From Flavobacteriales bacterium (GTDB lineage: Bacteria; Bacteroidota; Bacteroidia; NS11-12g; UBA955), in assembly GCA_947463095.1 (NCBI GenBank), contig CANHRE010000004.1:11077-75076 (forward strand): a stretch of 64,000 nucleotides of DNA, read 5' to 3'. The notes below the pieces were generated by a model. It ran no database searches. It saw nothing but the letters and a program-made list of their open reading frames with translations, and was not told the DNA's origin. This document shows, in pieces, positions 5,701 through 56,966 of this stretch. A program made the position numbers and the translations under genes. Every line of letters begins with the position of its first letter. Position 1 is the first letter of the stretch.

Positions 5701-6903
5701 TTGCCGTGCATGCTACACGCCGCGCAGAGAATTTCAGAAATTAACGAAAGCGAGACACTGGCCATGACCAAGCTGGCCAGAGCGTTGAAAGAGGCCGGAA
5801 AGGATGTTATCAGCCTGAGCATCGGCGAGCCTGATTTTGATACGCCCGAACACATCGGTGCTGCCGCCATTCAGGCCATCCATGAAGGGTTTACCCATTA
5901 TACCCCGGTGCTTGGTTTCCAGGATTTCCGGGAAGCGATTTGCCGTAAACTGCTGCGCGAAAACGGATTGACTTATCAGGCATCGGAAATTATCGTGAGC
6001 ACCGGCGCAAAACACACGCTGGTGAACATCATGCTGGCGGTACTCAATCCGGGTGATGAAGTTGTCATCCCCGCCCCGTACTGGGTGAGTTATCCGGCCA
6101 TGGTGCGCTATGCCGGCGGCGTTCCTGTATTTCTGAATACCACCGTGGAACAGGACTATAAGCCAACAGCAGCGCAACTCAGGGCTGCCATAAGCCCAAA
6201 AACCAAAATGTTCCTGTTCAGCAGCCCCTGCAACCCCAGCGGTACGGTATTCCAGCCTGAAGACCTGGAAACATATGCGGCGGTGTTGCGCGAATTCCCC
6301 GATATCCTGGTGGTAAGCGACGAGATTTACGAACACATTATCTTTGAAGGAAAGCACCTGAGCATTGCCGGTCTGCCCGGATTTAAAGACCGCACGGCCG
6401 TAGTAAATGGTCTTTCCAAAGGCTATGCCATGACCGGATGGCGCATGGGGTATATGGCCGGGCCGCAATGGCTGGTAAAAGCCTGCGAAAAATTACAGGG
6501 GGTGTTTACCAGCGGGGCAAACAGCATAGCACAGAAAGCAGGGATTGCCGCGCTGGATGGAACCATGGAGCCCACACGTCATATGCGCGAGGTATTCAGA
6601 GCACGCCGCAACCTGGTGCTCTCCGAACTTTCGAAAATACAGGGTCTGAAAATCAACGTTCCGGAAGGTGCATTTTATGTGTTTCCCGATATTTCCCATT
6701 TCCTTGGAAAATCCTTCCAGGGGAATACCATGAGCGATTCCAATGAGCTGGCCATCTACTTGCTGAATGAAGCCCTGGTTGCTACTGTTGCTGGTGATGC
6801 TTTTGGCATGCCGTCATGCATCCGCCTTTCCTATGCCACCGATGAAGCCAGCTTGCTCAAGGCCTGCTCCAGGATGAAGGAAGCACTGGAGAAACTCAGC
6901 TGA
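5701..6903 (+). CDS. Class I/II pyridoxal-phosphate aminotransferase (aspartate/aromatic aminotransferase-like)
   Basis: 400 aa. The N-terminus RISEINESETLAMTKLARALKEAGKDVISLSIGEPDFDTP matches the AspAT-family N-terminus, and the PLP-lysine region is NGLSKGYAMTGWRMGY. The true start may be M4 (5710). The gene is divergent from the GT4 gene. Confidence 0.8.
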   Translation: MPCMLHAAQRISEINESETLAMTKLARALKEAGKDVISLSIGEPDFDTPEHIGAAAIQAIHEGFTHYTPVLGFQDFREAICRKLLRENGLTYQASEIIVSTGAKHTLVNIMLAVLNPGDEVVIPAPYWVSYPAMVRYAGGVPVFLNTTVEQDYKPTAAQLRAAISPKTKMFLFSSPCNPSGTVFQPEDLETYAAVLREFPDILVVSDEIYEHIIFEGKHLSIAGLPGFKDRTAVVNGLSKGYAMTGWRMGYMAGPQWLVKACEKLQGVFTSGANSIAQKAGIAALDGTMEPTRHMREVFRARRNLVLSELSKIQGLKINVPEGAFYVFPDISHFLGKSFQGNTMSDSNELAIYLLNEALVATVAGDAFGMPSCIRLSYATDEASLLKACSRMKEALEKLS

Positions 6904-6917
6904 GCTTTGAATTAACT

Positions 6918-7916
6918 TTGCGCATCCCGATGCATACAAATTTTGAATCTTTATTTCGTTCATTCCGCAGCCTGAGGGTGCTGATAGTGGGGGATGTGAT
7001 GGTGGATGCCTATTACTTTGGCAGCGTTGACCGCATTTCTCCTGAAGCACCGGTGCCCGTAGTGTTGGTGGACAAACAGGAAACCCGCCTGGGCGGGGCC
7101 GGTAATGTGGCGTTGAATGTACATGCCCTGGGTGCGCAACCCGTGCTGTGCACCGTTATTGGAACAGATAAAGAAGGCGAAGGTCTCAGGGCTCTGCTTC
7201 GGGCTCAGGGTCTGAGCGAGCGCGGAATCCTGGAAAGCGAAAAGCGCAAAACCACGACCAAAACCCGCGTGATTGGCAACAAACACCAAATTGTGCGCAT
7301 TGACCATGAACTCACCGAGAACCTGGATAAAATGGACAGCTTCCTGCTGCTCGAATCTGTGAAGCGCGAACTCGAACAGGCCGATGTGCTGATCATGGAA
7401 GACTATAACAAGGGTGTACTTCACGAGGGTAACATCAAGGCCATCATCGCCCTGGCGAAGGAAGCCGGTGTTCCCGTAGTGGTAGATCCCAAAAAGAAGA
7501 ACTTCCTGGAATATGCCGGCGTAACCCTGTTCAAGCCCAACCTGAAGGAAATCAAGGAAGGGCTGAACATCACCACCGACCTGAGGCAACCAGAACAGCT
7601 TAGCGCCGCAGTTTCTCAGTTGCAGGAGAAATTGGGCAATACCTATACCATGGTTACCTTGTCGGAACAGGGTGTGTTTATTTCCGGAAAGGGGCAGTCC
7701 CATCATATTCCGGCACACCTCAGGAACATCGCCGATGTTTCCGGCGCCGGCGATACGGTAGTCAGCGTGGCAGCCCTATGCCTGGCGCTGGAAACCGATA
7801 TCCAGTTGCTGGCAGCGCTGAGCAACCTTGCCGGAGGTATTGTTTGTGAACAAACAGGGGTAGTGCCTATTGAAGCAGAACGCCTTAAGGCGGAAGCTGA
7901 ACGACTCCTGGTCTGA
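6918..7916 (+). CDS. PfkB-family sugar kinase resembling the D-glycero-beta-D-manno-heptose-7-phosphate kinase domain (HldE/RfaE domain I), standalone
   Basis: 332 aa. LRVLIVGDVMVDAYYFGSVDRISPEAPVPVV and GGAGNVALN match the HldE kinase N-terminus, and DVSGAGDTVVSVAALCLAL is a PfkB signature. There is no fused adenylyltransferase domain. The likely start is M5 (6930). Confidence 0.65.
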   Translation: MRIPMHTNFESLFRSFRSLRVLIVGDVMVDAYYFGSVDRISPEAPVPVVLVDKQETRLGGAGNVALNVHALGAQPVLCTVIGTDKEGEGLRALLRAQGLSERGILESEKRKTTTKTRVIGNKHQIVRIDHELTENLDKMDSFLLLESVKRELEQADVLIMEDYNKGVLHEGNIKAIIALAKEAGVPVVVDPKKKNFLEYAGVTLFKPNLKEIKEGLNITTDLRQPEQLSAAVSQLQEKLGNTYTMVTLSEQGVFISGKGQSHHIPAHLRNIADVSGAGDTVVSVAALCLALETDIQLLAALSNLAGGIVCEQTGVVPIEAERLKAEAERLLV

Positions 7917-7957
7917 ACTTTGTACAAGTTCTAAACCATTCCACCGTTATCTCATTC

Positions 7958-8842
7958 ATGACAAAGAAGCATTCAAAGACCTTCTTCCTTTGCCTGAGTT
8001 TCCTGTTGTTTCAGGCTGCCCAGGCACAAAAACCCTTCCTGTTTAAAGTGCAGGGTAAGGGACTAAAAGAGGCTTCCTATTTATTTGGTACCTATCATGT
8101 GATGGGAAGCCGCTACCTGGATGGTTTTCCAGTGGTGGATCAGGCCTTTCGTTCCTGCAAGGGACTGGTGAATGAGGTGCGCCTGTCGTCGGTAAATCCG
8201 TATCAGATGGCCGCCTTGTTGATGATGAAGGACAACAGCATCTCAGCCATGCTCGATACCACGGCCTATGCTTTGGTGAGCGATGCCCTGAAACAGTATT
8301 ACGGATTTCGACTGCAGCAGTTTGACCAAATGAAGCCCATGCTGGTGCAAACCATGCTCATTTCTGCTTTTGCCCGCCAATGGGACACCATGTTGAACCG
8401 CTACGAAGGGGTGGCGCTGGATGCCTGGTTTGAACAAATGGCCGACAGCCTGAAGAAAGAGGTTACACCTTTAGAAACCTTCGACGAGCAGTATCAGTCT
8501 TTGTTCGTAGAAAAATCGGAAGAGGAACAGGCTAAGGAACTTAGTGATATGGTGCTGAAGACAGATTCGGTGCGCCGCGATTTTCAGGCGATGACACGCG
8601 CCTTTTATTCAGGAAACCTGGATTCGATGTGGCTGGTGCTGTCTGCCACTGGGAATCCTAACGAAGCCGCTGATATGGAACGACTGCTGAAAAAACGCAA
8701 CCTTAAGTGGTTGGAGCAGCTTCCCGGAACGATGGAACGGAAATCGCAGTTTGTGGCTGTTGGCGCAGCTCATCTGGCCGGCCCGTTCGGCTTGGTGGCC
8801 GGACTGAAGGCCAAAGGCTATCAGGTAATTCAGGTATTATGA
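7958..8842 (+). CDS. TraB/GumN family protein (periplasmic, signal peptide)
   Basis: 294 aa with a signal peptide (MTKKHSKTFFLCLSFLLFQAAQAQ). The LFGTYHV motif and overall layout are typical of the TraB/GumN family. Confidence 0.6.
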   Translation: MTKKHSKTFFLCLSFLLFQAAQAQKPFLFKVQGKGLKEASYLFGTYHVMGSRYLDGFPVVDQAFRSCKGLVNEVRLSSVNPYQMAALLMMKDNSISAMLDTTAYALVSDALKQYYGFRLQQFDQMKPMLVQTMLISAFARQWDTMLNRYEGVALDAWFEQMADSLKKEVTPLETFDEQYQSLFVEKSEEEQAKELSDMVLKTDSVRRDFQAMTRAFYSGNLDSMWLVLSATGNPNEAADMERLLKKRNLKWLEQLPGTMERKSQFVAVGAAHLAGPFGLVAGLKAKGYQVIQVL

Positions 8843-9984
8843 GCAGTCAGGCCGCTGCCTCCTGGTGGGAAAGGCGCTACTGGGAAGACGTAGATGTGGC
8901 CGTGGCAGGCGCCGGTATTGTGGGTTTGCTTACCGCCATTCGCATCCGCGAGCGCAAGCCAAACTACCGCATTGTGGTGCTTGACCGCGACCCACTTGCC
9001 CTGGGAGCCAGCAGCAGAAATGCAGGCTTTGCGTGTTTTGGCAGCATCACTGAACTGCTGGATGATATTGGTGAAGAAGGCTGGGATGCCGCGCTGGAGC
9101 TTGCCGTTCGGCGCTATGAAGGTTTTCAGGCACTGCGCAATATCTGCGGCGATGCGGCCATCGGCCTGAACCTTTGCGGAAGCAGGGAAGTATTTCTTCC
9201 CGGAGAAGAAGGGCGCTACCGCGAAGCCCTGCAGCTGATGCCCGAACTCAACAGCGCCCTGGCATCCATCACCGGCGAAGAAGCTACCTTCTGTGCCGCG
9301 GATGCCAGCCAACTAGCCATGAACGTGCTGTCGGAATCGCTTGTGAACCGCTGCGAAGGAATCCTGGAAACGGATATGCTGCTGCGTCGCCTCAGAAACC
9401 TGGCAACCGCGCAAGGTATCGAGTTGTATGGAGGGTTTGAAATGGGTCTGCACGAACGCAGCGGCCAGGGATTTCGCATCCGTTGCGGCAGACATGAATT
9501 GAATGCACGCCTGCTGGTGTATTGCACCAATGCCTTCACCCCTCAGTTTTTTCCTGATTTACCCATCGTTCCAGCCAGGGGACAAGTACTGGTAACCACA
9601 CCGCTGGCACAAACCCTTCCCAATGAAGCGTTTTTCTATGACCGCGGATATACCTATTTCCGTCCTGTTTTCGGAAATCGTCTGCTGATGGGTGGTTTCA
9701 GGAACAAGGATTTTTCTGCTGAAGAAACCTATTCCCTGGATCCAGGAGGAACAGTTTGGCAGGAATTGATGCGTTTCACCACAGCGGTGGTACTGCCTGG
9801 TCAGACCTGGGAAGTGGCTTATTCCTGGGCAGGTACGATGGCCATGGGCGCTGAACGCAGTCCTGTCATCTGTGCCACAGAACCTGGTGTGGTGGTTTGC
9901 GCCCGCATGTCGGGGATGGGCGTAGCCCTTTCGGCAAAGGTTTCGCAGGAAGCGACTGAATTACTACTGCAACAGGTGTATTGA
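8840..9984 (+). CDS. FAD-dependent oxidoreductase (DAO/glycine-oxidase-like family)
   Basis: Dinucleotide-binding motif VAVAGAGIVGLLTAIRI…VVLDRD…GASSRNAGF close to the N-terminus. The start is taken as the ATG at 8840 (MSSQAAASWW…), not the 8707 start in the ORF track, because that upstream extension overlaps the TraB/GumN gene. Confidence 0.7.
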
Positions 9985-15866: not shown

Positions 15867-16330
15867 CACTGCTGTCCAAAACGTTTTTTATTGAACAGTT
15901 AGTGTGCTGATTATCAAGGATTAAGCTGTCTTTTTTTGCCATTTTGATTTTTACCCCCCCCACCGAATCAACCATATTCTATTCTTTCCTCTTACTTTTT
16001 CCTTGATGAAAAAGTAAGCAAAAAATCAAGGCTGCTTGGATAGTGGATAGTGGATAGTGGTAAGGGATAAGTGGTAAGTGGTAAGAGCCGGTCCCCGCCT
16101 GCTCCCACCGAGTTGCAAAGCAACTGCTTGCCCCCACTGGATTGCGCAGCAAGACACCGTGGGGGTGGGGGAGCAGCTTGCCCCCCTTGTCCTTCGCTGC
16201 GCTCACTTACGCCTGCCCCGTAAGCGCAGCGACAGGGGGGGCAGGCGCAAGCGCAGCGATGCGGGGTTATATTAATAGCAATAACAGGAAACAAATATTC
16301 AGAGCCCCGGCCCCGCCCGAGTTAAGCGAG
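15867..16330. repeat. Modular structured intergenic repeat, copy A: hairpin module, heptamer array and G/C-rich stem-loop modules
   Basis: 15867-16035 matches the reverse complement of 54727-54894. 15989-16175 matches 47878-48127 in direct orientation. There is a perfect 10-bp-stem hairpin (CTTACTTTTT-ccttgatg-AAAAAGTAAG) at 15991-16018 and seven tandem TGGWWAG heptamers at 16037-16085. C-run/G-run stems (CCCCCAC…GTGGGGG) follow, and more palindromic GC-rich stems extend to about 16330. The repeat lies in a convergent 3'-3' intergenic region. Confidence 0.85.
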
Positions 16331-47691: not shown

Positions 47692-47877
47692 CAGTTTAGA
47701 TGGGTATTGAACTTAAGGTGAGACAGCGGCATGAACGTTGCGTCGCAAACTTACGGCAAAGGCTAAACTGAAGCAAATGAGGGATTATGGGGAGTGCACC
47801 GGTCCCTGAGCTCATTTTGAATATATGCTCATGACAGGGGTCTGTGCCAACCTGATGAATCCTTAAGCAAGAATTTT

Positions 47878-48127
47878 CTCTTACTTTTTCCTTGATGAAA
47901 AAGGATGCAAAAAATCAAGGCTGCTTGGATAGTGGTAAGGGATAAGTGGTAAGTGGTAAGTGCGGAGGTTTGTAATCCTGCTGTCATCCTGAGCATGCCT
48001 ACCCCTACCGGGCTGCGCAGCAGATTGGTAGGGGAGCTAGTTTACCCTGCCTGCCCCCACCGAGTTGCAAAGCAACTGCTTGCCCCCACTGGATTGCGCA
48101 GCAAGACACCATGGGGGTGGGGGAGCA
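47878..48127. repeat. Modular structured intergenic repeat, copy B (direct relative to copy A; carries an extra ~90-bp module)
   Basis: Matches copy A from the hairpin module through the heptamer array (five TGGWWAG units here) and the CCCCCAC…GTGGGGGTGGGGG module. It holds an additional internal duplication of the C-run-TGCGCAGCA-G-run submodule. The hairpin stem is partly degraded (AAAAAGGATG versus AAAAAGTAAG). Confidence 0.85.
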
Positions 48128-48726: not shown

Positions 48727-50577
48727 ATGAGTAAAAATTTGAACCATAAAATAGATGCTGACGACAGAAGCATCAGCGAAATTCTGAAAGACCAGAAATT
48801 TACTATTGATTATTTTCAACGTGAATACCGCTGGCAGGAAAAGCATATCAAACTTTTAATTGAAGACCTGACCACTACGTTTCTTAAATCATATAGGGAA
48901 GGAGATAAGAGATCGGAAGTAGCCAATTATCAAAGCTATTATTTAGGCCCTGTGGTGTTTAGTGTGAACACAGAAAGCGGTAAGAAATCAATTATCGACG
49001 GACAGCAGCGCATTACTTCCATCACACTCCTGCTCATTTACCTGAATCATCTTCAAAAAGATCTTCCGCAGAAAGTAAACATCAGCGAACTCATTTTTTC
49101 TGAAAAATATGGCGAAAAATCCTTCAACATGAGTGATGAAGCCAGAGAAGAGTGCTTGAAAGCACTTTTTGAAGCAGGGGCATACGAACCAACGGAAAAA
49201 GATGATGAAACAGTGCGTAACATGGTTGAACGTTATGAGGATATTGATGCTGTTTTCCCTGAAGAAATTAACGAACATGCACTTCCATTTTTCATTGATT
49301 GGTTTGTTGAAAATGTAGTTATTGTTGAAATCATCGCTTATTCGGATGAGAATGCCTATACCATTTTTGAAACAATGAACGACAGGGGATTAAACCTGAC
49401 GCCAACAGAAATGCTGAAAGGGTATATTCTTTCCAAAATCACAGACAAAAAGCAGAGAACAGAAATCAATGACCTTTGGAAAGAAGAAATTCAAAATCTT
49501 CATGAATATGGTGAAACTACAGACCAAAGCTTTTTCCAAGCATGGTTCAGAGGTAAATATGCGGTGAGTATCAGACCTGGTAAAGCAGGTTCGGAAAATC
49601 AGGACTTTGAATTGATTGGTTCCCGTTTTCATAATTGGTTTAAAGACAATCATAAGTCTCTTTTTAAACTGACCACATCAGACGAGTTCTATACTTTTTT
49701 CAAAAATCAGTTCCCATTTTTTGTAAAGTGGTATATCGAAAGCTGGAAAAGTCAAACCACATATAACGCTGCAAATCCGCATTTGAATTACATTCGTCAT
49801 TGGGGTGTTGCCGAATCGCTTCAAGAACCTCTATTGCTCTCATCAATAAACTTTGGTGATGATGAAACCATCATCAGGAAAAAGTTAGACTTTGTTGCAC
49901 GATATATTGAAACCTTTACGGTTCGACGCAGCGTGAACTACCGTAAATTTGGTCAGACGGCAATTAAATACACCATGTTTAATGTCATCAAACTTATTAG
50001 AGACAATGACCTGAAAACATTAGGCTCAAACTTGGTAAATGAAGTGTCACAAATTGCAGAAACATGGGATGGGGTTTGGAGTTTTGGTCTTCACGGCATG
50101 AACAGAAAGTTTGTAAAACATCTTCTTTCAAGAATTTCAAGTTACGTGGACAATTTAGTCGGTAAGGACACAACCTATGTATCCTATCACCATCCATACG
50201 GCAAGCAGTTTGAGATTGAGCACATTTGGGCAAACAAGTTTGAAGAACATAAAGATGAGTTTGACCAGAAAAATGATTTTCAGGAATGGAGAAATTCAGT
50301 TGGTGCACTCGTGTTATTACCACAAGGCACCAATCAATCATTCAATGGCGATAAGTATGAAGACAAACTGGAAAATTATCTAAAGGAAAATACTTACGCA
50401 CAGACCTTGCATCCAAAGTATTACACGAAGAATCCTAATTTTTTGAAATCGGAAACAGTTCAACAACTCGGATTTAAAGAGCATTCGCAATTCAAGAAGA
50501 ATGATATAGGCGAAAGGCAAATATTAGTTCAACGAATCTGTGAGAAAATATGGTCTGAAGAATACTTCAATGTATAA
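48727..50577 (+). CDS. GmrSD-type DUF262/DUF1524 nuclease (type IV restriction / BrxU-like anti-phage protein)
   Basis: 616 aa. The N-terminal DUF262 (ParB-like NTPase) has DGQQRITSITLLLIYL. The C-terminal DUF1524 His-Me finger has …FEIEHIWANKF…NSVGALVLLPQGTNQSFNGDKYEDKL. GC content is about 36-38% against about 56% genome-wide. Confidence 0.8.
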   Translation: MSKNLNHKIDADDRSISEILKDQKFTIDYFQREYRWQEKHIKLLIEDLTTTFLKSYREGDKRSEVANYQSYYLGPVVFSVNTESGKKSIIDGQQRITSITLLLIYLNHLQKDLPQKVNISELIFSEKYGEKSFNMSDEAREECLKALFEAGAYEPTEKDDETVRNMVERYEDIDAVFPEEINEHALPFFIDWFVENVVIVEIIAYSDENAYTIFETMNDRGLNLTPTEMLKGYILSKITDKKQRTEINDLWKEEIQNLHEYGETTDQSFFQAWFRGKYAVSIRPGKAGSENQDFELIGSRFHNWFKDNHKSLFKLTTSDEFYTFFKNQFPFFVKWYIESWKSQTTYNAANPHLNYIRHWGVAESLQEPLLLSSINFGDDETIIRKKLDFVARYIETFTVRRSVNYRKFGQTAIKYTMFNVIKLIRDNDLKTLGSNLVNEVSQIAETWDGVWSFGLHGMNRKFVKHLLSRISSYVDNLVGKDTTYVSYHHPYGKQFEIEHIWANKFEEHKDEFDQKNDFQEWRNSVGALVLLPQGTNQSFNGDKYEDKLENYLKENTYAQTLHPKYYTKNPNFLKSETVQQLGFKEHSQFKKNDIGERQILVQRICEKIWSEEYFNV

Positions 50578-50694
50578 CAAAGAATTTTTGTAAAGACAGC
50601 CAACGCACAGGTGTAAGCATATTTGCAAGTGTAAGTCCCACCGAAAATCGGACTGGTCATAAGTTGGCAAAATAGCTAACTTAGAACCACGAAC

Positions 50695-50961
50695 ATGAAG
50701 AAGACCAAATTCACAGAAAGCCAGATCGTGAAAGCGATTAAGGAGGCTGAAAACGGCCGTTCAGTGTCGGACATCAGCCGGGAACTGGGCATCAACCCGC
50801 AGACTTTGTACAATTGGAAAAATAAGTACTCCGGTATGGACGGTGAACACCTGCGGCGACTTAAGGAACTGGAAGAGGAGAATCGTAAGCTGAAACACAT
50901 GTATGCCGAATTGGCCCTTGACAACAAGATGCTCAAGGATGTGCTGTCAAAAAAGTGGTAA
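50695..50961 (+). CDS. IS3-family transposase OrfA (HTH)
   Basis: 88 aa: MKKTKFTESQIVKAIKEAENGRSVSDISRELGINPQTLYNWKNKY…, then a leucine-zipper-like C-terminus. This is the typical IS3 OrfA. Confidence 0.85.
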   Translation: MKKTKFTESQIVKAIKEAENGRSVSDISRELGINPQTLYNWKNKYSGMDGEHLRRLKELEEENRKLKHMYAELALDNKMLKDVLSKKW

Positions 50962-51779
50962 GGCCTGCTGCCCGCAGAGAAATAGTAGCTTACCTGCAAG
51001 TATCCCATCAGGTAAGTGTCAGCAGAGCCTGTAAAGCAACCGGGATAAGGAAATCGGTCTATTATTACCGTTCCAGGAAGGACGACAGTGCTGTCATTGA
51101 CGCATTGAGCAACCTTGCCGAACTGAAACCATCCAGAGGCTTCCCTTATGACTTCAATCGCCTGCGCAATGAGGGCCATACCTGGAACCATAAGCGTGTG
51201 AAACGGGTCTATAACCTGATGAATCTGAACCTGAGAAGAAAGCATAGGCGCCGCTTACCCCAACGCGTAGGGGGCGCGTTGGAGCAAGCGCCGAGACCAA
51301 ACCAAACATGGAGTCTGGATTTCATGCATGATACATTAATGAACGGTCGCAAAGTGCGCATCCTGAATATCATAGACGACTACAACCGACAAGCTCTGGC
51401 TATGGACGTTGATTACTCCCATTCGGGAATGAGCGTTTGCAGGGCTCTTGAAAGACTCTTCGCCGAACAAGGCCTTCCTGCTGAGTTACGGTCTGACAAT
51501 GGCCCGGAATTCTTTTCTGGAACCTATACCGACTTCTGTGAGAAACATCAAATCAAGATCCGGTACATCAAGCCAGGAAAGCCTATGCAAAACGGCTTTG
51601 TAGAACGGTTTAACCGCAGTTACAGGGAAGATATCCTGGACGCATACCTGTTTACGAATATTGAAGAATTACGTGATCTCACCTGGCAGTTTCAACAAGA
51701 CTACAATCAAAACCACCCACATCAAGCGCTGAATAACTTAAGCCCCATTGCCTTTCTCAAACTAAACAACCATCTTTGA
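50955..51779 (+). CDS. IS3-family transposase OrfB (DDE integrase-like catalytic domain), expressed by -1 frameshift from OrfA
   Basis: rve-type domain: …WSLDFMHDTL…LRSDNGPEF…YIKPGKPMQNGFVERFNRSYREDIL (DD(35)E). It overlaps OrfA at the AAAAAAG site (50949-50955). Confidence 0.85.
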   Translation: MVRPAARREIVAYLQVSHQVSVSRACKATGIRKSVYYYRSRKDDSAVIDALSNLAELKPSRGFPYDFNRLRNEGHTWNHKRVKRVYNLMNLNLRRKHRRRLPQRVGGALEQAPRPNQTWSLDFMHDTLMNGRKVRILNIIDDYNRQALAMDVDYSHSGMSVCRALERLFAEQGLPAELRSDNGPEFFSGTYTDFCEKHQIKIRYIKPGKPMQNGFVERFNRSYREDILDAYLFTNIEELRDLTWQFQQDYNQNHPHQALNNLSPIAFLKLNNHL

Positions 51780-51816
51780 CTTCCAACTTATTACCGGTTC
51801 GAAAAACGGGGTACCT

Positions 51817-52245
51817 TCATTAAACTTTTAGTTGGCAAACCAATAGACGAAAGCATTTCAGTTGACGGTGCTTGGAATACATCAAATGGTGTTGTAGAGT
51901 ATCAGGGTGTTCACACAAAAACAAAGGAACTAATTTTTAAAGTCGGGCCATTAGAGGACGGGACAAATAACATAGTAGAGTTTTTAGGAATTGTTCATGC
52001 ACTTGCACATTGCAAAAAACACAATATCACTCTTCCAATTTATTCGGACAGTAGAAATGCAATCGGTTGGGTTCGTGACAAAGAAGCAAGAACAAACCAT
52101 GACCGTAGCGAAAGAAATACAAAACTTTTCGACATGTTGGACAGAGCAGTAAAATGGCTTAAAGAAAACGAATATGAGAACGAAATTCTCAAATGGGAAA
52201 CAAAAGCATGGGGAGAAAATCCTGCTGACTTTGGTCGAAAATAAT
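51817..52245 (+). pseudogene. RNase H-like (RNase HI fold) ORF with no usable start codon, abutting the IS3 right end
   Basis: The 142-codon frame FIKLLVGKPIDESISVDGAWNTSNGVVEYQGV…TNNIVEFLGIVHALAHCKKH…IYSDSRNAIGW…WETKAWGENPADF aligns with the RNase HI catalytic D-E-D-D positions. There is no ATG/GTG/TTG between the IS end and the first catalytic Asp. It is AT-rich, and its stop lies 40 nt upstream of the helicase start. Confidence 0.6.
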
Positions 52246-52285: not shown

Positions 52286-54469
52286 TTGACAACACCTAAA
52301 ACTGATTTAAGCGCTCTTAACGACAAACAAAGCGAAGCCGTTGTTAGTGACGAAAAACGCATTTTGGTTTTAGCTGGTGCAGGTTCTGGCAAAACAAAAA
52401 CCCTATTACAAAAAATCATTTACTTGATAGAAGAAAAAGGCGTAAGTCCTTCAAGTATTCTTGCTATTACATTTACCAAGAACGCAACTAACGAAATGAT
52501 TGACCGCTTAATTGTTTCGGCAGATACAACAGGGCAATATGAAACTTTGATGTCTGATAAGCATCTAAGCAAATTAGAGAAAGACAAAGAAAGATACAGC
52601 CAACAAAAAAAATATAAATGGATTGACGGTTTAACCGTCAGGACATTTCACAGCTTTTGTTACAGCATCTTACGGAATTATGGTGTAAACGAGTTTGATA
52701 ACAAGTTTAGAATTATAGGAGACGAAAAAAAGGACGAGGAAGACGAACTTGCAAAGCATGTTGCCCCCGAAACAGTTTTTGAAGTAGTCCACAAACTTTT
52801 AATTGAGCAATGCGAAGACACTTATTTTATGCTACAATTAAAACGCTATATTTTGGATTACGTTATAGACAAAATTCACCTCAAAAAAACAGATGGAAAA
52901 TATTTGCCGAAAGACGGCAAATATTTCACAACTCTTGATGGAACAAAAGTCCGTTCCAAATCGGAGCAGTTTATTGCTGATTGGTTTTACCGCCACAGCA
53001 TAAAGTATGAATATGAACCTTTACTAAATGTTAAGGACTTCCCATTTCATCCCGACTTTTTCATTCCAGAAGCGAACCTTTATATTGAACACTTAAGCGA
53101 TAAAAGCTATTCTACAAAGGACAAAGAAGAACAATTTCAAAAGGGAAATTTACTTTTAGTAAAGACATTTGAAAGCATGACAAAAGACTCTGCTTTGTTC
53201 AACCACACTCTGGACAGCGTTGTAAAGAACCGTTTGCCTGCAAATTATCACAAGACAGTTTCATTGACTTACAAAGAAGAATTTAATGGATATCATGAAA
53301 GTATAAAGGATTTCGTTACTCAAATCATACGAATTACAGACATGATAAAAGTTGAGAACACAGACCTGAAAAAAGTCCTAAATGATGCAAGACAAGACCA
53401 ACACGAAAGAGTGAGACATTTTTATGAATTAGCAATTCCAATAGTTGAAAAATATATTCATTACTGCATAGACAAATCTTATGTTGATTTTAATGATTTG
53501 ATTTCACGGAGCACTTCCCTATTTCAGAACCATGACGACATAGCCAACAAATACAAAAGCAAATATCAATACATTTTAGTAGATGAATTTCAAGACGTAA
53601 ATAACTTGCAAGTTGAGTTAATAAAACTTTTACTAACCGACCAAACTCAAATGTTTTGTGTTGGTGACGATTGGCAAAGTATTTACGGTTTCAGAGGTTC
53701 TAACGTGAGTTATATCGTTGACTTTGAAAATCATTTTCCAAATGCAAAAGTTGTCAAACTCAATTTGAATTATCGTAGCACTCAAAACATTGTTGGAGCA
53801 AGTAACGAAGTAATCAAACACAACAAGTTTAAAGTTGAAAAAGAAATTCACTCTTCAAAAAAATCTGAACATAAAATTGTTGTCTATTCAGGCAGCAGCG
53901 AAGATGAAAACATACAATTCTGTTTTGACAGAGTGAAAGAACTTTTAGATGAAGGACTGACAAACGATGATATTTTATTTCTCTACCGTAGAAGCAGAAT
54001 GTTTACTCCTTACTTCTTTCGTTTCAAAAACGAGGGAATAAAGGTTCATGGAAAAACAATTCATGCAGCTAAAGGACTTGAAGCAAAAGTTGTTTTCATA
54101 CTTGGCTTGTCAGAGGGAAACGGGGGTTTCCCAGACATTTGGTTGGAGGACAGAATTTTTCAAGTAATTAAAAAAGCAAATCACGATTTGCTAATAGAAG
54201 AAGAAAGGCGACTATTTTATGTTGCAATCACCAGAGCCAAAGACAAACTATTTTTAGTAACAGAGAAAGGAAACGAATCAAGTTTTTTAAAAGAGATACC
54301 AGCCATTTTCACAGTTCGGACAACTATACCAATTAAGTCAGTAGTAGAAAAAGTAATTACGTGCAAAAAGTGTTTTAGCCAACTTGAAAAACTTTGGATT
54401 GCTTGCCCATACTGCATGGAGAAAGTAACAGACGACACCAACGGACAAGAAAATGACATCAATATTTAA
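52286..54469 (+). CDS. UvrD/PcrA-like SF1 helicase with a Vsr/DUF559-like (restriction-endonuclease-fold) domain inserted between motifs Ia and II and a C-terminal Cys4 zinc ribbon; probable anti-phage helicase-nuclease
   Basis: 727 aa. Helicase motifs: I AGAGSGKT, Ia ILAITFTKNA, II YILVDEFQDVN, III VGDDWQSIYGFRGS, IV NYRST, VI YVAITRAKDKLFLV. The insert is …RSKSEQFIADWFYRHSIKYEYEPLLNVKDFPFHPDFFIPEANLYIEHLSDK…. The C-terminus reads CKKCFSQLEKLWIACPYC. GC content is about 35%. Confidence 0.7.
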   Translation: MTTPKTDLSALNDKQSEAVVSDEKRILVLAGAGSGKTKTLLQKIIYLIEEKGVSPSSILAITFTKNATNEMIDRLIVSADTTGQYETLMSDKHLSKLEKDKERYSQQKKYKWIDGLTVRTFHSFCYSILRNYGVNEFDNKFRIIGDEKKDEEDELAKHVAPETVFEVVHKLLIEQCEDTYFMLQLKRYILDYVIDKIHLKKTDGKYLPKDGKYFTTLDGTKVRSKSEQFIADWFYRHSIKYEYEPLLNVKDFPFHPDFFIPEANLYIEHLSDKSYSTKDKEEQFQKGNLLLVKTFESMTKDSALFNHTLDSVVKNRLPANYHKTVSLTYKEEFNGYHESIKDFVTQIIRITDMIKVENTDLKKVLNDARQDQHERVRHFYELAIPIVEKYIHYCIDKSYVDFNDLISRSTSLFQNHDDIANKYKSKYQYILVDEFQDVNNLQVELIKLLLTDQTQMFCVGDDWQSIYGFRGSNVSYIVDFENHFPNAKVVKLNLNYRSTQNIVGASNEVIKHNKFKVEKEIHSSKKSEHKIVVYSGSSEDENIQFCFDRVKELLDEGLTNDDILFLYRRSRMFTPYFFRFKNEGIKVHGKTIHAAKGLEAKVVFILGLSEGNGGFPDIWLEDRIFQVIKKANHDLLIEEERRLFYVAITRAKDKLFLVTEKGNESSFLKEIPAIFTVRTTIPIKSVVEKVITCKKCFSQLEKLWIACPYCMEKVTDDTNGQENDINI

Positions 54470-54726: not shown

Positions 54727-54894
54727 GCAGCCTTGATTATTCTCTTACTTTTTCATCAAGGAAAAAGTAAGAGAAAAGAATAGAATATGTTTGATTCGGT
54801 GTGGGGGTAAAAATCGAAATCGTCAAAAACAGACTGCTAACCCCCAAATAATCTGCACACTAACTGTTCAATAAAAACGTTTTGGACAGCAGTG
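54727..54894. repeat. Modular structured intergenic repeat, copy C (inverted relative to copies A and B; hairpin module plus left-arm module only)
   Basis: The reverse complement of 54727-54894 aligns with 15867-16035. This covers CACTGCTGTCCAAAACGTTTTT(T)ATTGAACAGTTAGTGTGC…TTTTTACCCCC…ACCGAATCAA…TATTCTATTCTT…CTCTTACTTTTTCCTTGATGAAAAAGTAAG…AATCAAGGCTGC. The hairpin is perfect. Confidence 0.85.
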
Positions 54895-55127: not shown

Positions 55128-55700
55128 ATGACAAACGACTATTTAGACAGTGTAAAAAAACAATTTGAGTACTACAAAATGCTTGGCGACAAAACGTTTT
55201 CGCAATTACAGGATGACAAATTGTTTTGGCAATACAATGACGACAGCAACAGTATTGCGACAATTGTAAAACACATTTGGGGAAATATGCTTTCACGTTG
55301 GACAGACTTTTTAACTTCAGACGGAGAAAAAGAATTTCGTAACAGGGATGCAGAATTTGAAAACGACATGAAAAATAGAGAAGAACTTGTAGACAAGTGG
55401 AACGAAGGTTGGACTTGTCTTTTCAATGCAATCAACTCTTTGACAATGGACGACCTTGACACAATTATTTATATACGCAATCAGGGACACACTGTATACG
55501 AAGCAATAAATCGACAACTCGCACATTATCCTTATCACATTGGACAAATTGTATTTCTGGGTAAGATGCTTGCAGAAAATGGCTGGACTTCGCTATCAAT
55601 TCCAAAAGGAAATTCACAATCGTATAACAAAGACAAGTTTACAAAACCAAAACAAAGAGGACACTTTACAGACGAGTTTCTAAACGACAAGAAAGAATGA
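55128..55700 (+). CDS. DinB/YfiT-like (DUF1572) four-helix-bundle family protein
   Basis: 190 aa. …IATIVKHIWGNMLSRWTDFL… and …QLAHYPYHIGQIVFLGKML… match the DinB_2/DUF1572 pattern of metal-binding His residues on helices. GC content is low, like the rest of the island. Confidence 0.55.
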   Translation: MTNDYLDSVKKQFEYYKMLGDKTFSQLQDDKLFWQYNDDSNSIATIVKHIWGNMLSRWTDFLTSDGEKEFRNRDAEFENDMKNREELVDKWNEGWTCLFNAINSLTMDDLDTIIYIRNQGHTVYEAINRQLAHYPYHIGQIVFLGKMLAENGWTSLSIPKGNSQSYNKDKFTKPKQRGHFTDEFLNDKKE

Positions 55701-55817: not shown

Positions 55818-56702
55818 ATGACAAAAAAACCATTTGACTGCGGGGCGTTCAAGAAGCCCCTCGCCAGACGATTGCAGGAGGGCAAGCGTTTGCCTGGTAA
55901 AATCGGGGCCCCGACGCCGTTGATGAAGGATTTTCCGGAGGAAGCACCGGTTGGTGAGCTGCTGTCTCCTATGGAGCCCTGTGAAGTGCTGAACCGGAAC
56001 AATGGGCCGCTTCTGTTGGGCAGCCGCGATGCAAAGGACTGGGTAAGCGATTCTTTTGTTAATAAAACAGAGACAATCATTCCAGGAGCATCAAGCAAAC
56101 ACAAGGCGGGTAGGGCTCGATTGTTGCGAGAACCAGATGCATTGCATGAACAAACTGCAAGCAGCATGGTAGGTGATGGAGCAGGTGGAGAAGCTTTTAC
56201 ACACTACATAGGTGAAGAATTTGGCGGTGGTGTGATTTTCCATTTATGGAACGATGCAGCAGGGGTTGAACATGGGTACATAGTAGATAAAGTGTTTTTA
56301 AGTACCAGCAATAGCCGGGCATGGAGCAACATTACGGATGAAGAAATTGGCCCTTCGGCTCAAAATAAATTGGGCGGCCTAAGCAACAGCAAAGCCATTG
56401 TGGCCCAGGATGGACATGTGCACAGCGCTGCCGCACTTTGTTTAAATTCAACCAACGGAGGGCAACGCGACTGGTATTTGCCATCAATCAATGAATTATG
56501 GCTTCTTTGGCCAAACCGTTTCCTTGTCAACGAAACCATTGCAAAAATTGGTGGCGCAGCCGTTCCGCTGATTCCGTCCTACCTCTGGAGCAGTACGGAG
56601 GACGACAACATCTGCGCTTATTACTTCTCCTTCTACCTTGGTTATGCCTCCATCAGCCATAAGCTCTACCCATATTATGTGCGTGCAGTTCGGGCTTTTT
56701 AA
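55818..56702 (+). CDS. DUF1566 (Lcl C-terminal domain) protein with an N-terminal extension of about 130 aa of unknown function
   Basis: 294 aa. The C-terminal domain has GGGVIFHLWNDAAGVEHGYIV and the hallmark RDWYLPSINELWLLW (the WRLPTxxEL motif of DUF1566). No signal peptide is evident at the annotated N-terminus. Confidence 0.55.
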   Translation: MTKKPFDCGAFKKPLARRLQEGKRLPGKIGAPTPLMKDFPEEAPVGELLSPMEPCEVLNRNNGPLLLGSRDAKDWVSDSFVNKTETIIPGASSKHKAGRARLLREPDALHEQTASSMVGDGAGGEAFTHYIGEEFGGGVIFHLWNDAAGVEHGYIVDKVFLSTSNSRAWSNITDEEIGPSAQNKLGGLSNSKAIVAQDGHVHSAAALCLNSTNGGQRDWYLPSINELWLLWPNRFLVNETIAKIGGAAVPLIPSYLWSSTEDDNICAYYFSFYLGYASISHKLYPYYVRAVRAF

Positions 56703-56856: not shown

Positions 56857-56889
56857 AAAAAAAAACCATCACATGGTGATGGTTTTTTT
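56857..56889. terminator. Rho-independent terminator shared by tRNA-Val (minus) and the DUF1566 gene (plus)
   Basis: AAAAAAAAA-CCATCACATGGTGATGG-TTTTTTT lies immediately 3' of the tRNA. Confidence 0.7.
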
Positions 56890-56891
56890 GG

Positions 56892-56966
56892 TGGGAGCTG
56901 AGGGGTTCGAACCCCCGACCCTCTGCTTGTAAGGCAGATGCTCTGAACCAGCTGAGCTAAGCTCCC
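56892..56966 (-). tRNA. tRNA-Val (anticodon TAC); the CCA is genome-encoded (56889-56891)
   Basis: Reverse complement: GGGAGCU-UA-GCUC-AGCUGGUUCA-GAGC-A-UCUGC-CUUACAA-GCAGA-GGGUC-GGGGG-UUCGAAC-CCCCU-CAGCUCCC-A-CCA. It folds as a cloverleaf with a 7-bp acceptor stem, a GGUUCGAAC T-loop and anticodon UAC. Confidence 0.9.

Follow-up and report, generated by a model that had tools for sequence, protein, structure and literature searches.

A mobile UvrD-type helicase gene carrying a predicted PD-(D/E)xK nuclease module nested in its 1B region

Within the window (the whole 64,000-nucleotide stretch of Flavobacteriales DNA analyzed here, from contig CANHRE010000004.1), a GmrSD-like gene, an IS3-family insertion sequence, the remnant of an RNase H gene, and a gene for a UvrD-type helicase follow one another on the forward strand (Table 1). 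A low-GC island (32-46% versus ~52%) surrounds the helicase gene, the start of which matches the gene-caller start on identical metagenome contigs. The RNase H remnant, not spotted in the earlier sequence-only reading of this DNA, has no in-frame start codon and has lost its hybrid-binding domain, as read from the sequence. It is the product of truncation of the helicase's usual partner by the IS3 element, which is delimited by terminal inverted repeats. Other contigs encoding an identical helicase carried the same IS-disrupted locus, and no preinsertion allele was found among them. The GmrSD-like gene, which PADLOC models also recognize (HEC-06, 8.8e-36; also Orf5 and SspE), was not found beside the helicase at other loci and is a neighbor rather than a conserved partner. 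Thus, the AT-rich island and the GmrSD-like neighbor that the sequence-only reading had cited are both real, but the adjacency is secondary, created by the intervening IS3 element. A 51-nt inverted repeat bracketing the GmrSD-IS3-helicase block was considered as a pair of mobile-element ends and rejected, since the repeat core occurs again at 15989 and similarity stops by ~55 nt.

Table 1. Features of the helicase locus, in coordinates of the window.
Feature	Position	Strand	Description and evidence
GmrSD-like (DUF262/DUF1524) type IV restriction-type gene	48727..50577	+	GmrSD_N (PF03235) 2.7e-34, GmrSD_C 3.7e-7
IS3-family insertion sequence	50648..51802	+	between GmrSD-like gene and RNase H remnant; terminal inverted repeats 50648-50667 / 51783-51802
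IS3 orfA; orfB	50695..50961; 50955..51779	+	NCBIfam transpos_IS3 5.9e-62, Pfam rve
5'-truncated RNase H pseudogene	51828..52244	+	residues 73-210 of a 210-aa HBD-RNase H; tblastn 89% identity, E 1e-84
Helicase-nuclease gene	52286..54469	+	727 aa, TTG start; UvrD-type motor with predicted nested PD-(D/E)xK module
Walker A / motif I, AGAGSGKT	52373..52396	+	residues 30-37, K36; translation
Expanded 1B region	52682..53473	+	residues ~133-396; PcrA alignment gap, AF2 secondary structure and pLDDT
Nested T7-endonuclease-I-like PD-(D/E)xK module (predicted)	52910..53233	+	residues ~209-316; profiles, model, conservation
Putative active site	E227 52964-52966; E244; D257 53054-53056; E268 53087-53089; K280 53123-53125	+	conservation
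Motif II, DEFQD	53582..53596	+	residues 433-437; translation
CxxC-x10-CxxC zinc-ribbon-like tail	54362..54415	+	C693, C696, C707, C710

The encoded protein is a complete SF1A motor. Pfam assigns UvrD-helicase (2.3e-66) and UvrD_C (1e-26), and motifs I, Ia, Ib, II, III, IV, V, and VI accompany a tandem RecA-like 1A/2A fold, as in the UvrD-like superfamily; every motif quoted in the sequence-only reading is present. The Walker A and DEFQD motifs are invariant in 41 close relatives and equally so in distant relatives. Helicases of the UvrD/Rep/PcrA type are 3'->5' ssDNA translocases. Alignment with PcrA places residues 570 to 583 of the query against PcrA 361 to 555, revealing the absence of the 2B domain, where the AlphaFold2 (AF2) model has a single helix; the sequence-only reading had not mentioned this absence. 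The helicase gene is accessory and is not a Rep, PcrA, or UvrD orthologue: its NCBIfam scores lie far below cut-off for pcrA (300 vs 911 bits), uvrD (262 vs 1144), and rep (246 vs 951). The same applies to DNA helicase IV/HelD (PRK11054, 257 vs 543 bits), and an N-terminal HelD-specific domain is absent, as the Walker A lysine already falls at K36. These scores, together with the variable neighborhoods described below, contradict the possibility that the homologues are chromosomal Rep/PcrA orthologues in syntenic contexts.

The C terminus carries two CxxC pairs whose four Cys are invariant in the 41 close relatives, a pattern resembling the zinc ribbon proposed from the sequence. The tail is missing in some distant relatives, is modeled at low confidence as two short strands, and resembles Pfam zinc-ribbon and RING families weakly and below cut-off (Prok-RING_4 1.5e-3, DZR 5.9e-3; best 18.8 vs 27 bits).

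The distinguishing feature of the protein lies between motifs Ib and II, where residues 75 to 374 correspond to PcrA 76 to 163, indicating ~210 extra residues, of which a nuclease-like module comprises roughly 100. An insert between motifs Ia and II had been noticed earlier, although its size had been put at ~90 aa. It had also been taken to stand in place of the 1B subdomain. The AF2 model argues otherwise: 1B helices 164-193 and 337-396 are retained on either side of the module, with a disordered linker at 196-207, and because the module core is nested between these kept helices, 1B is not replaced. This full-length model, for which diverged full-length relatives and stand-alone domain proteins were combined in one alignment, is of good quality (mean pLDDT 83.7), whereas a first model based on the 41 close relatives (83-93% identity) reached a mean pLDDT of 44.6 and was discarded. 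An intein or homing-endonuclease insertion was rejected as the origin of the insert, as the module is ~100 aa, its borders lack visible splicing motifs on reading the sequence, and it is kept in frame, together with the flanking 1B helices, across deep subfamilies.

Taken alone, the insert from the window had no Pfam match at E<=10, PF05367 included, and no phmmer match in the PDB. A homology assignment for the module therefore rests on profiles. Two fold searches run on the model of the complete protein yielded helicases and nothing else. Two independent profiles, one mixed and one built only from helicase-embedded copies, were compared with the PDB, and both matched T7 endonuclease I (2pfj/1m0d) at 3.5e-6 to 7e-6 (2pfj at 6.9e-6 and 3.5e-6), followed by archaeal Bax1 at E ~1e-3. 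In the profile alignment, E227, D257, and E268 stand opposite E20, D55, and E65 of T7 endonuclease I. The PHROG 9019 family, annotated "Holliday junction resolvase", also matches the module (2.5e-5), and PHROG families with a homing-endonuclease annotation show weak similarity to it. The stretch FIADWFYRHSIKYEYEPLL...FHPDFFIPEANLYIEH quoted in the sequence-only reading is indeed present in the insert and is far from a chance resemblance, given the residues that are invariant among 118 aligned sequences (S224, E227, F258, P261, and E268) and a profile match to a solved nuclease at E~5e-6.

The AF2 model is consistent with these profile matches. The core elements follow the order alpha-beta-beta-beta-alpha-beta at pLDDT 76-88, with helix 225-236 (E227), strands 247-249/252-254/258-260 (D257) and 265-270 (E268), helix 278-286, and strand 291-295. 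As is characteristic of the PD-(D/E)xK core, the first helix, the beginning of beta2 (the PD motif), and beta3 each bear acidic residues. A PD-(D/E)xK, or restriction-endonuclease-fold, module inside an otherwise complete UvrD-type helicase is thus supported. The restriction-endonuclease fold had been anticipated from the sequence, but the family had been given as Vsr/DUF559. Neither Vsr (PF03852) nor DUF559 (PF04480) matched the insert at E<=10 in Pfam, and no such chain appeared among the PDB matches at E<=10 with either profile. PF05367 itself is touched by only 2 of 85 relatives (at 5.5e-4), and we read the module as a family related to, but distinct from, the T7 endonuclease I family. Given the failure of the single sequence to match Pfam or the PDB, the insert might instead be an enlarged, divergent 1B subdomain devoid of a nuclease fold. 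This possibility, which the sequence-only reading had itself raised, is scarcely credible: the T7 endonuclease I matches align catalytic residues, the module also exists on its own and within proteins other than helicases, and the modeled core is mixed alpha/beta, whereas 1B is helical.

Conservation of the putative active site was assessed in 127 domain copies, stand-alone and embedded, that have diverged to 25-40% identity. E227 is retained in 127/127, E244 in 124/127, D257 in 125/127, E268 in 126/127, and K280 in 115/127. The near-invariance of four acids and a lysine is the pattern that would be expected of an active site. The canonical (D/E)xK lysine is nevertheless absent; position 270 is Leu in the window and Trp, Phe, Leu, Val, or Ile in every one of the 127 copies. 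Lysines relocated to the following helix are known from other PD-(D/E)xK families, and K280, on the following helix, is a candidate relocated catalytic lysine. With the canonical lysine gone, nuclease catalysis by the module is likely yet unproven. Alternatively, the module could be catalytically dead and serve only to recognize branched DNA or DNA ends, with killing left to ATP-driven translocation or to other proteins. We regard this as unlikely. The universal loss of the ExK lysine, the lack of any Pfam nuclease match to the insert, and the many fused PD-(D/E)xK domains that act as inactive binders all speak for it; conversely, the persistence of four acids and K280 at such divergence is hard to explain without chemistry, lysine relocation has precedent, and stand-alone copies of 100-150 aa possess no other domain able to act.

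The nested architecture is old and shared, not peculiar to the gene in the window. Several helicase subfamilies from bacteria, archaea, and plasmids possess it despite deep divergence, and no published description of it was found in a literature search. The earlier suggestion of an undescribed arrangement therefore stands as far as published accounts go, but the arrangement is not unique to this protein. PADLOC searches, as the sequence-only reading had proposed, matched the window's insert to PDC-S69 (2.1e-13), PDC-S68 (4.5e-11), and HEAT_CxxC_PDDEXK (6.3e-7), and stand-alone relatives match PADLOC candidates with the module at up to 1.8e-52. PADLOC has no model for the full-length protein; its GajB and DRT-helicase models match the helicase core alone. 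The literature search found no published description of PDC-S68 or PDC-S69 and no published validation of these or of HEAT_CxxC_PD-DEXK.

The gene is accessory and horizontally mobile, and travels in a cassette of one or two genes. The close subfamily is present in at least 228 species genomes, and members also occur in Ignavibacteria and Spirochaetia MAGs. The family shows a patchy distribution that does not follow phylogeny, and unrelated Bacteroidota carry members with 91-95% identity to each other. When 83 loci are compared, DNA similarity does not continue past the coding sequence on either side, and the gene has a lower GC content than its flanks in 60 of 72 loci (32-36% versus ~52% in the window). 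Across the 83 loci the helicase protein is 69-95% identical, which is unusually conserved for a defense gene and counts against such a role.

The second gene of the cassette encodes an RNase H. Whether truncated or not, it lies just upstream of the helicase in 28 of 77 loci, and intact copies, which have all their catalytic motifs and a hybrid-binding domain (HBD-RNase H), end 23-66 nt (mostly 38-46 nt) before the helicase start. Repeated loss, including the IS3 truncation in the window, suggests that the partner is dispensable. No other recurrent neighbor and no core-genome synteny were detected among the 83 loci, nor were conserved ends, integrase, or replication genes around the cassette. 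Alternatively, the gene might serve a mobile element (an integrative element or plasmid) in its replication, maintenance, or homing, and not benefit the host. Relatives on plasmids and beside a Prim-Pol/D5 primase, a serine recombinase and IS near the gene in some loci, and the weak similarity to PHROG families with homing-endonuclease annotations fit such a role, as does one locus (L077) in which the 3' tail of the gene is duplicated onto the next gene. We consider it very improbable, however, as the conserved unit is one or two genes without shared ends, integrase, or replication genes, only one of 50,697 phage records contains a match, and the module, at whose borders no splicing motifs were visible on reading the sequence, falls short of the size of an intein.

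The genes around the cassette vary widely. Among them are Avs4, type I and IIG restriction-modification (R-M) systems, mad2/mad3, AriA, SoFic, and several PDC candidates; Bpu10I R-M, SymE, and the Ter operon also occur as neighbors, as does GmrSD in the window. Distant relatives are found next to an HsdM-like methylase with a large helicase or next to Fic/ParD, and plasmid-borne ones next to PLD/AAA/HNH genes. Housekeeping neighbors are also numerous (carboxyl transferase, D-Ala-D-Ala ligase, exonuclease VII, and topoisomerase IV) and count against a defense role. From this genomic context, an anti-phage or defense role is plausible for the candidate. The occurrence of its module in the PADLOC candidates PDC-S68, PDC-S69, and HEAT_CxxC_PD-DEXK likewise hints at defense.

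At roughly even confidence, we propose a single-chain helicase-nuclease, drawn from an accessory mobile gene pool, that cuts at the junction and restricts invading phage or plasmid DNA. The motor would load on single-stranded or branched DNA and then translocate. In PcrA/UvrD helicases, 1B faces the duplex/fork junction, and a nuclease embedded there would be carried at that junction. Cutting at the junction would employ E227, E244, D257, and E268 as metal ligands and K280 as the relocated catalytic lysine, such that unwinding and cutting would be coupled in one polypeptide. The RNase H partner may recognize or process RNA:DNA hybrids, such as R-loops or replication primers, thereby creating or marking entry sites. 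The outcome would be restriction of invading DNA by a one- or two-gene defense cassette.

The same partner invites a different interpretation, in which the protein is an accessory helicase-nuclease for genome maintenance that, with RNase H, removes R-loops from host DNA or resolves collisions of replication with transcription and forks that have stalled or branched. The sole conserved partner is an HBD-RNase H with intact catalytic motifs, helicases of the UvrD/Rep/PcrA type are established resolvers of such conflicts, the solved proteins nearest to the module, T7 endonuclease I and Bax1, are junction- or bubble-cutting nucleases of repair and recombination, the sequence is highly conserved, and several loci lie among housekeeping genes. 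We nonetheless judge host maintenance unlikely, considering the patchy, horizontally transferred distribution without synteny, the island-like GC content, scores far under the UvrD, Rep, PcrA, and HelD cut-offs, the loss of RNase H in most loci, and the frequent proximity of defense and mobile-element genes. A further, rather improbable idea is that HBD-RNase H and helicase, as an intact two-gene cassette, form a new defense type for which the signal of non-self would be RNA:DNA hybrids of the invader, arising as R-loops, as replication primers, or from transcription-replication collisions. RNase H would recognize or nick the hybrid, the 2B-less motor would load on the exposed strand, and the 1B nuclease would shred DNA at the moving fork; the helicase-only form in the window would then derive from this system and act constitutively or in response to another trigger.

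Helicase-nucleases are central both to repair (RecBCD, AddAB, Dna2, and XPB-Bax1) and to many anti-phage systems (Gabija, Nhi, Hna, Cas3, and type I R-M). Those compared here possess a terminal nuclease or a separate nuclease subunit, and a junction-type module in the fork-facing 1B subdomain would afford very direct coupling. The module has no Pfam model, and a literature search found no experimental study of the family. If the nuclease is active and phages or plasmids are restricted, a compact one- or two-gene system would be added to the defense catalogue, and a domain family common to the PADLOC candidates PDC-S68 and PDC-S69 would be named as well. The RNase H association makes RNA:DNA hybrids, as substrate or trigger, a testable idea.

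Compared with UvrD, Rep, and PcrA, the protein described here lacks 2B, carries a ~100-aa module in 1B, ends in a zinc-ribbon-like tail, and is accessory and mobile rather than core. Gabija was considered and rejected: GajB models match the helicase core (2e-63), but GajA, an ATPase with a TOPRIM OLD-family nuclease, is not alongside, with no PADLOC match among the window's neighbors and none recurrent among 148 neighbors elsewhere. "Type II Gabija" (Liu-DS1) GajB has its extra domain at the N terminus (Walker A at K252) and therefore a different architecture. PDC-S68, PDC-S69, and HEAT_CxxC_PD-DEXK contain the same module and are themselves only candidate defense proteins; unlike the present protein, they are not UvrD helicases, and the module is C-terminal (model positions ~1100-1180 of ~1200, or ~180-286 of ~289).

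Among proteins of solved structure, T7 endonuclease I (gp3; 1M0D, 2PFJ) is the insert's best match. It shares the PD-(D/E)xK core order, and the helix Glu, the "YE" motif, the Asp of "PDF", and the strand Glu all align in register. Its K67, however, corresponds to a hydrophobic residue in every copy, such that catalysis would hinge on the putative relocated K280, and PF05367 is blind to the insert. T7 endonuclease I is a Holliday-junction resolvase that acts alone as a domain-swapped homodimer, while here one copy of the module sits inside a motor protein. In AddAB/RecBCD/AdnAB, Dna2, Nhi, and Hna, the nuclease domain is terminal, whereas here it interrupts 1B between motifs Ib and II and is not accompanied by conserved partner subunits. 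XPB-Bax1 (6P66), in which a structure-specific nuclease is held on a translocating helicase, resembles the working model proposed here, although Bax1 is a separate polypeptide on an SF2 helicase, the nuclease module in this case resides inside an SF1 helicase, and the similarity is weak. Thus, while AddAB/RecBCD and XPB-Bax1 couple unwinding and cutting through terminal or separate nuclease domains, the protein described here would do so within a single nested chain.

The helicase is a complete SF1A motor that lacks a 2B domain; it has a zinc-ribbon-like tail and, nested within it, a T7-endonuclease-I-like module whose acidic cluster is conserved. Its gene lies exactly where a sequence-only reading had placed it, and the TTG start is also chosen by gene callers on identical metagenome contigs. 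All of the UvrD/SF1 motifs claimed there were found, with support from Pfam (UvrD-helicase, 2.3e-66; UvrD_C, 1e-26), whose N-terminal domain model of 271 positions is stretched over residues 11-485. When aligned with PcrA, residues 8-75 correspond to PcrA 9-76 and residues 374-570 to PcrA 163-361. The insertion proposed between motif Ia and motif II is thus present, although it comprises ~210 extra residues between motif Ia/Ib and motif II rather than ~90. A feature that the reading did not mention is the missing 2B domain, deduced from residues 570-583 jumping across PcrA 361-555. The C-terminal CKKC...CPYC was recognized correctly, as all four cysteines are invariant among 41 close relatives. 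Assignment as a UvrD, Rep or PcrA orthologue or as helicase IV was rejected, with every score under the cut-off.

An AF2 model with mean pLDDT 83.7 and pTM 0.72 was obtained from a composite alignment of 118 rows, combining diverged full-length relatives with stand-alone domain proteins anchored on the insert; a model from close relatives only (pLDDT 44.6) was set aside. In the composite model, 1B-type helices (164-175, 179-193) and a disordered linker (196-207) precede the module (pLDDT 76-88). The module is built from helix 225-236 (E227), strands 247-249, 252-254, and 258-260 (D257), strand 265-270 (E268), helix 278-286 (K280), strand 291-295, and helix 302-316, after which helices 337-356, 361-369, and 374-396 go back into 1A. 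The predicted module displays the alpha-beta-beta-beta-alpha-beta order of PD-(D/E)xK nucleases. Contrary to the suggestion that the insert stands in place of 1B, the modeled 1B is retained, with the module nested within it. A fold search with the full-length model returned helicases only.

Searched alone, the insert had no match in Pfam at E ≤ 10 or, by phmmer, in the PDB. With residues 151-360 as query, an exhaustive search of 1.84 billion representative proteins retrieved 698 at E ≤ 1e-3. What they share, a core of residues ~205-300, is found at the same position in many other UvrD-type helicases, in stand-alone proteins of 100-300 aa, and in other architectures. The domain family is without a Pfam model; among 85 relatives, just 2 are touched by PF05367 (phage endonuclease I). 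A profile built from 40 diverse module copies reached T7 endonuclease I (2pfj, 6.9e-6; 1m0d, 7.4e-6) and Bax1, the archaeal XPB-associated nuclease (6p66, 1.1e-3), and a profile from helicase-embedded copies only gave the same PDB matches (3.5e-6, 4.7e-6, and 9.5e-4). The Vsr/DUF559 label first attached to the insert does not hold, since no such chain appeared among the PDB matches of the module profiles, even at E ≤ 10. In the profile alignments, S-K-S-E227, Y-E244, P-D257-F, and I-E268 stand in register with SGLE, YEE, PDF, and VE of T7 endonuclease I, aligned positions that hold its catalytic E20, D55, and E65. The insert also matches a PHROG annotated as Holliday junction resolvase (2.5e-5) and PADLOC models of candidate defense proteins (PDC-S69, 2.1e-13; PDC-S68, 4.5e-11; HEAT_CxxC_PD-DEXK, 6.3e-7); no validation of PDC-S68 or PDC-S69 was found in the literature. 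The stand-alone modules (proteins P0326-P0443 and A2 members) form a large family. Fusions with double zinc ribbons are frequent (DZR_2 in 9 of 85), and occasional fusions involve DCD, HEAT, or topoisomerase-type zinc fingers.

Of the 127 domain copies compared for conservation, 36 belong to proteins of 450 aa or more and 91 to smaller ones. E227 is kept in all 127, E268 in 126, D257 and S224 in 125 each, E244 in 124, and K280 in 115. The position of the canonical ExK lysine (L270 in the query) is hydrophobic in every copy, and the module might be catalytically dead and serve in binding. Activity through a relocated lysine is nonetheless argued for, because four acidic residues and one lysine are near-invariant at 25-40% overall identity and because stand-alone copies, with nothing else to do, conserve the same residues.

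The nested arrangement is old, common, and unnamed. The module lies 120-170 residues past Walker A and ahead of motif II in every long relative examined, including subfamilies that share only 30-45% identity with the query and 900-1160-aa proteins with additional C-terminal domains. Plasmids of Acinetobacter, Rhizobium/Agrobacterium, Vibrio, and haloarchaea carry such genes under the sole annotation "UvrD-helicase domain-containing protein". Members of the close subfamily (69-95% identity) were confirmed at no fewer than 228 places in species-representative genomes, mostly from many families of Bacteroidota, with Ignavibacteria, Spirochaetia, and one Chlamydiae MAG; in metagenomes the subfamily makes up over 120 clusters at 90% identity.

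One 48.8 kb contig (JBDSAP010000260.1; L016 and L017) bears two helicase copies in inverted orientation with identical flanking genes, including one for a ParE-like toxin, which reflects a large inverted duplication or else an artifact of assembly. At L075:5686-7824 the helicase is split, with DNA similarity covering 5717-6563 and, separately, 6976-7713, and an intact ORF was not found; this copy is probably a pseudogene. At L077, the helicase (5995-8151) is followed by a gene for an otherwise unrelated 276-aa protein (8247-9077) ending with a near-identical copy of the zinc-ribbon tail (…CAKCFSQLDNKLYVFCPYCGEKIGLK…), suggesting that a cassette was inserted or exchanged at the 3' end of the helicase gene and that the tail was duplicated in the process.

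The sole recurrent neighbor is an upstream RNase H gene, found at 28 of the 77 loci with room for it and ending 23-66 nt (mostly 38-46) before the helicase. The partner either joins a hybrid-binding domain (Cauli_VI) to RNase H (~210 aa) or is a tandem RNase H-RNase H protein of about 320 aa (318-329; L022, L030, L033, L057), in which a canonical RNase HI-type domain stands where the hybrid-binding domain would. The C-terminal domain keeps its D/E/D/D motifs. At several loci only remnants of the partner survive, and the window's pseudogene, which has no in-frame start codon, is what is left of this usual partner.

Features of the helicase locus in the window
Feature	Position	Strand	Details
GmrSD-like DUF262/DUF1524 gene	48727-50577	+	PADLOC HEC-06 8.8e-36, Orf5, SspE
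IS3-family element (orfA/orfB)	50648-51802		20-nt terminal inverted repeats 50648-50667 / 51783-51802
RNase H pseudogene, 5'-truncated	51828-52244	+	residues 73-210 of 210-aa hybrid-binding-domain partner, 89% identity
Helicase ORF	52286-54469	+	727 aa, TTG start
DUF1572/DinB_2 gene	55128-55700	+	4.2e-75
Lcl_C-domain gene	55818-56702	+	
tRNA-Val(TAC)	56889-56966	-	right edge of low-GC island
Short palindromic repeat (core CTCTTACTTTTTCCTTGATGAAAAAG)	47874-47924, 54727-54777, 15989-16014		first two inverted, third outside block

The AT-rich island and GmrSD neighbor reported from the sequence are both real: helicase and GmrSD-type gene share a low-GC island (~48-56.5 kb; 32-46% GC against ~52% elsewhere in the window), whose right part, with the DUF1572/DinB_2 and Lcl_C-domain genes, is still low in GC (41-48%). 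The adjacency of helicase and GmrSD-type gene is an IS-associated junction rather than a conserved linkage, because the RNase H remnant directly adjoins the IS3 element that separates it from the GmrSD gene. As only an A-run borders this element, simple insertion and IS-mediated deletion are indistinguishable. Three metagenome contigs contain the same disrupted locus. The GmrSD-like gene is likely a type IV restriction-type defense gene in its own right. Palindromic repeats, expected by chance not at all in 64 kb, enclose the GmrSD-IS3-helicase block; given the third copy, they look like dispersed REP/MITE-like sequences instead of element termini. tRNA genes at island edges are typical landmarks of insertion; within this island, no integrase was seen.

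Restriction of foreign DNA is the most likely biological role. An accessory factor for R-loop or fork repair is a rival reading, favored by the RNase H partner and by the housekeeping genes common beside the helicase. The family does not behave as uniformly chromosomal repair helicases in syntenic core contexts, given scores under orthologue cut-offs, DNA similarity ending at the helicase coding ends (83 loci), and plasmid relatives. The same boundaries count against a mobile-element function, a further rival. At 60 of 72 loci, GC in the helicase gene is under that of the flanks. No Pfam family occurs more than three times in the 148 genes flanking the helicase; their PADLOC matches include Avs4, restriction-modification of types I and IIG, mad2/mad3, AriA, SoFic, and several PDC candidates, and single loci have Bpu10I R-M with SymE or a Ter operon. 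For restriction, the association with defense islands is suggestive only.

The motor would translocate 3'->5' on ssDNA, as its relatives do. In PcrA/UvrD complexes, 1B faces the fork junction; because 1B carries the nuclease, cutting would occur at or near the junction while the motor advances. The RNase H partner, if present, may recognize or process RNA:DNA hybrids. The main value lies in a large, experimentally tractable family of predicted function with a specific RNase H link.

The arrangement had not been recognized as described, and a literature search likewise found no description of a nested nuclease. Gabija was ruled out, GajA being absent, and GajB of "type II Gabija" has its extra domain at the N-terminus, in contrast to the internal module here. 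Like AddAB/RecBCD, Dna2, XPB-Bax1, Nhi, and Hna, the helicase combines a motor with a PD-(D/E)xK-type nuclease module; unlike these systems, in which the nuclease is terminal or supplied in trans, the module is nested in 1B.
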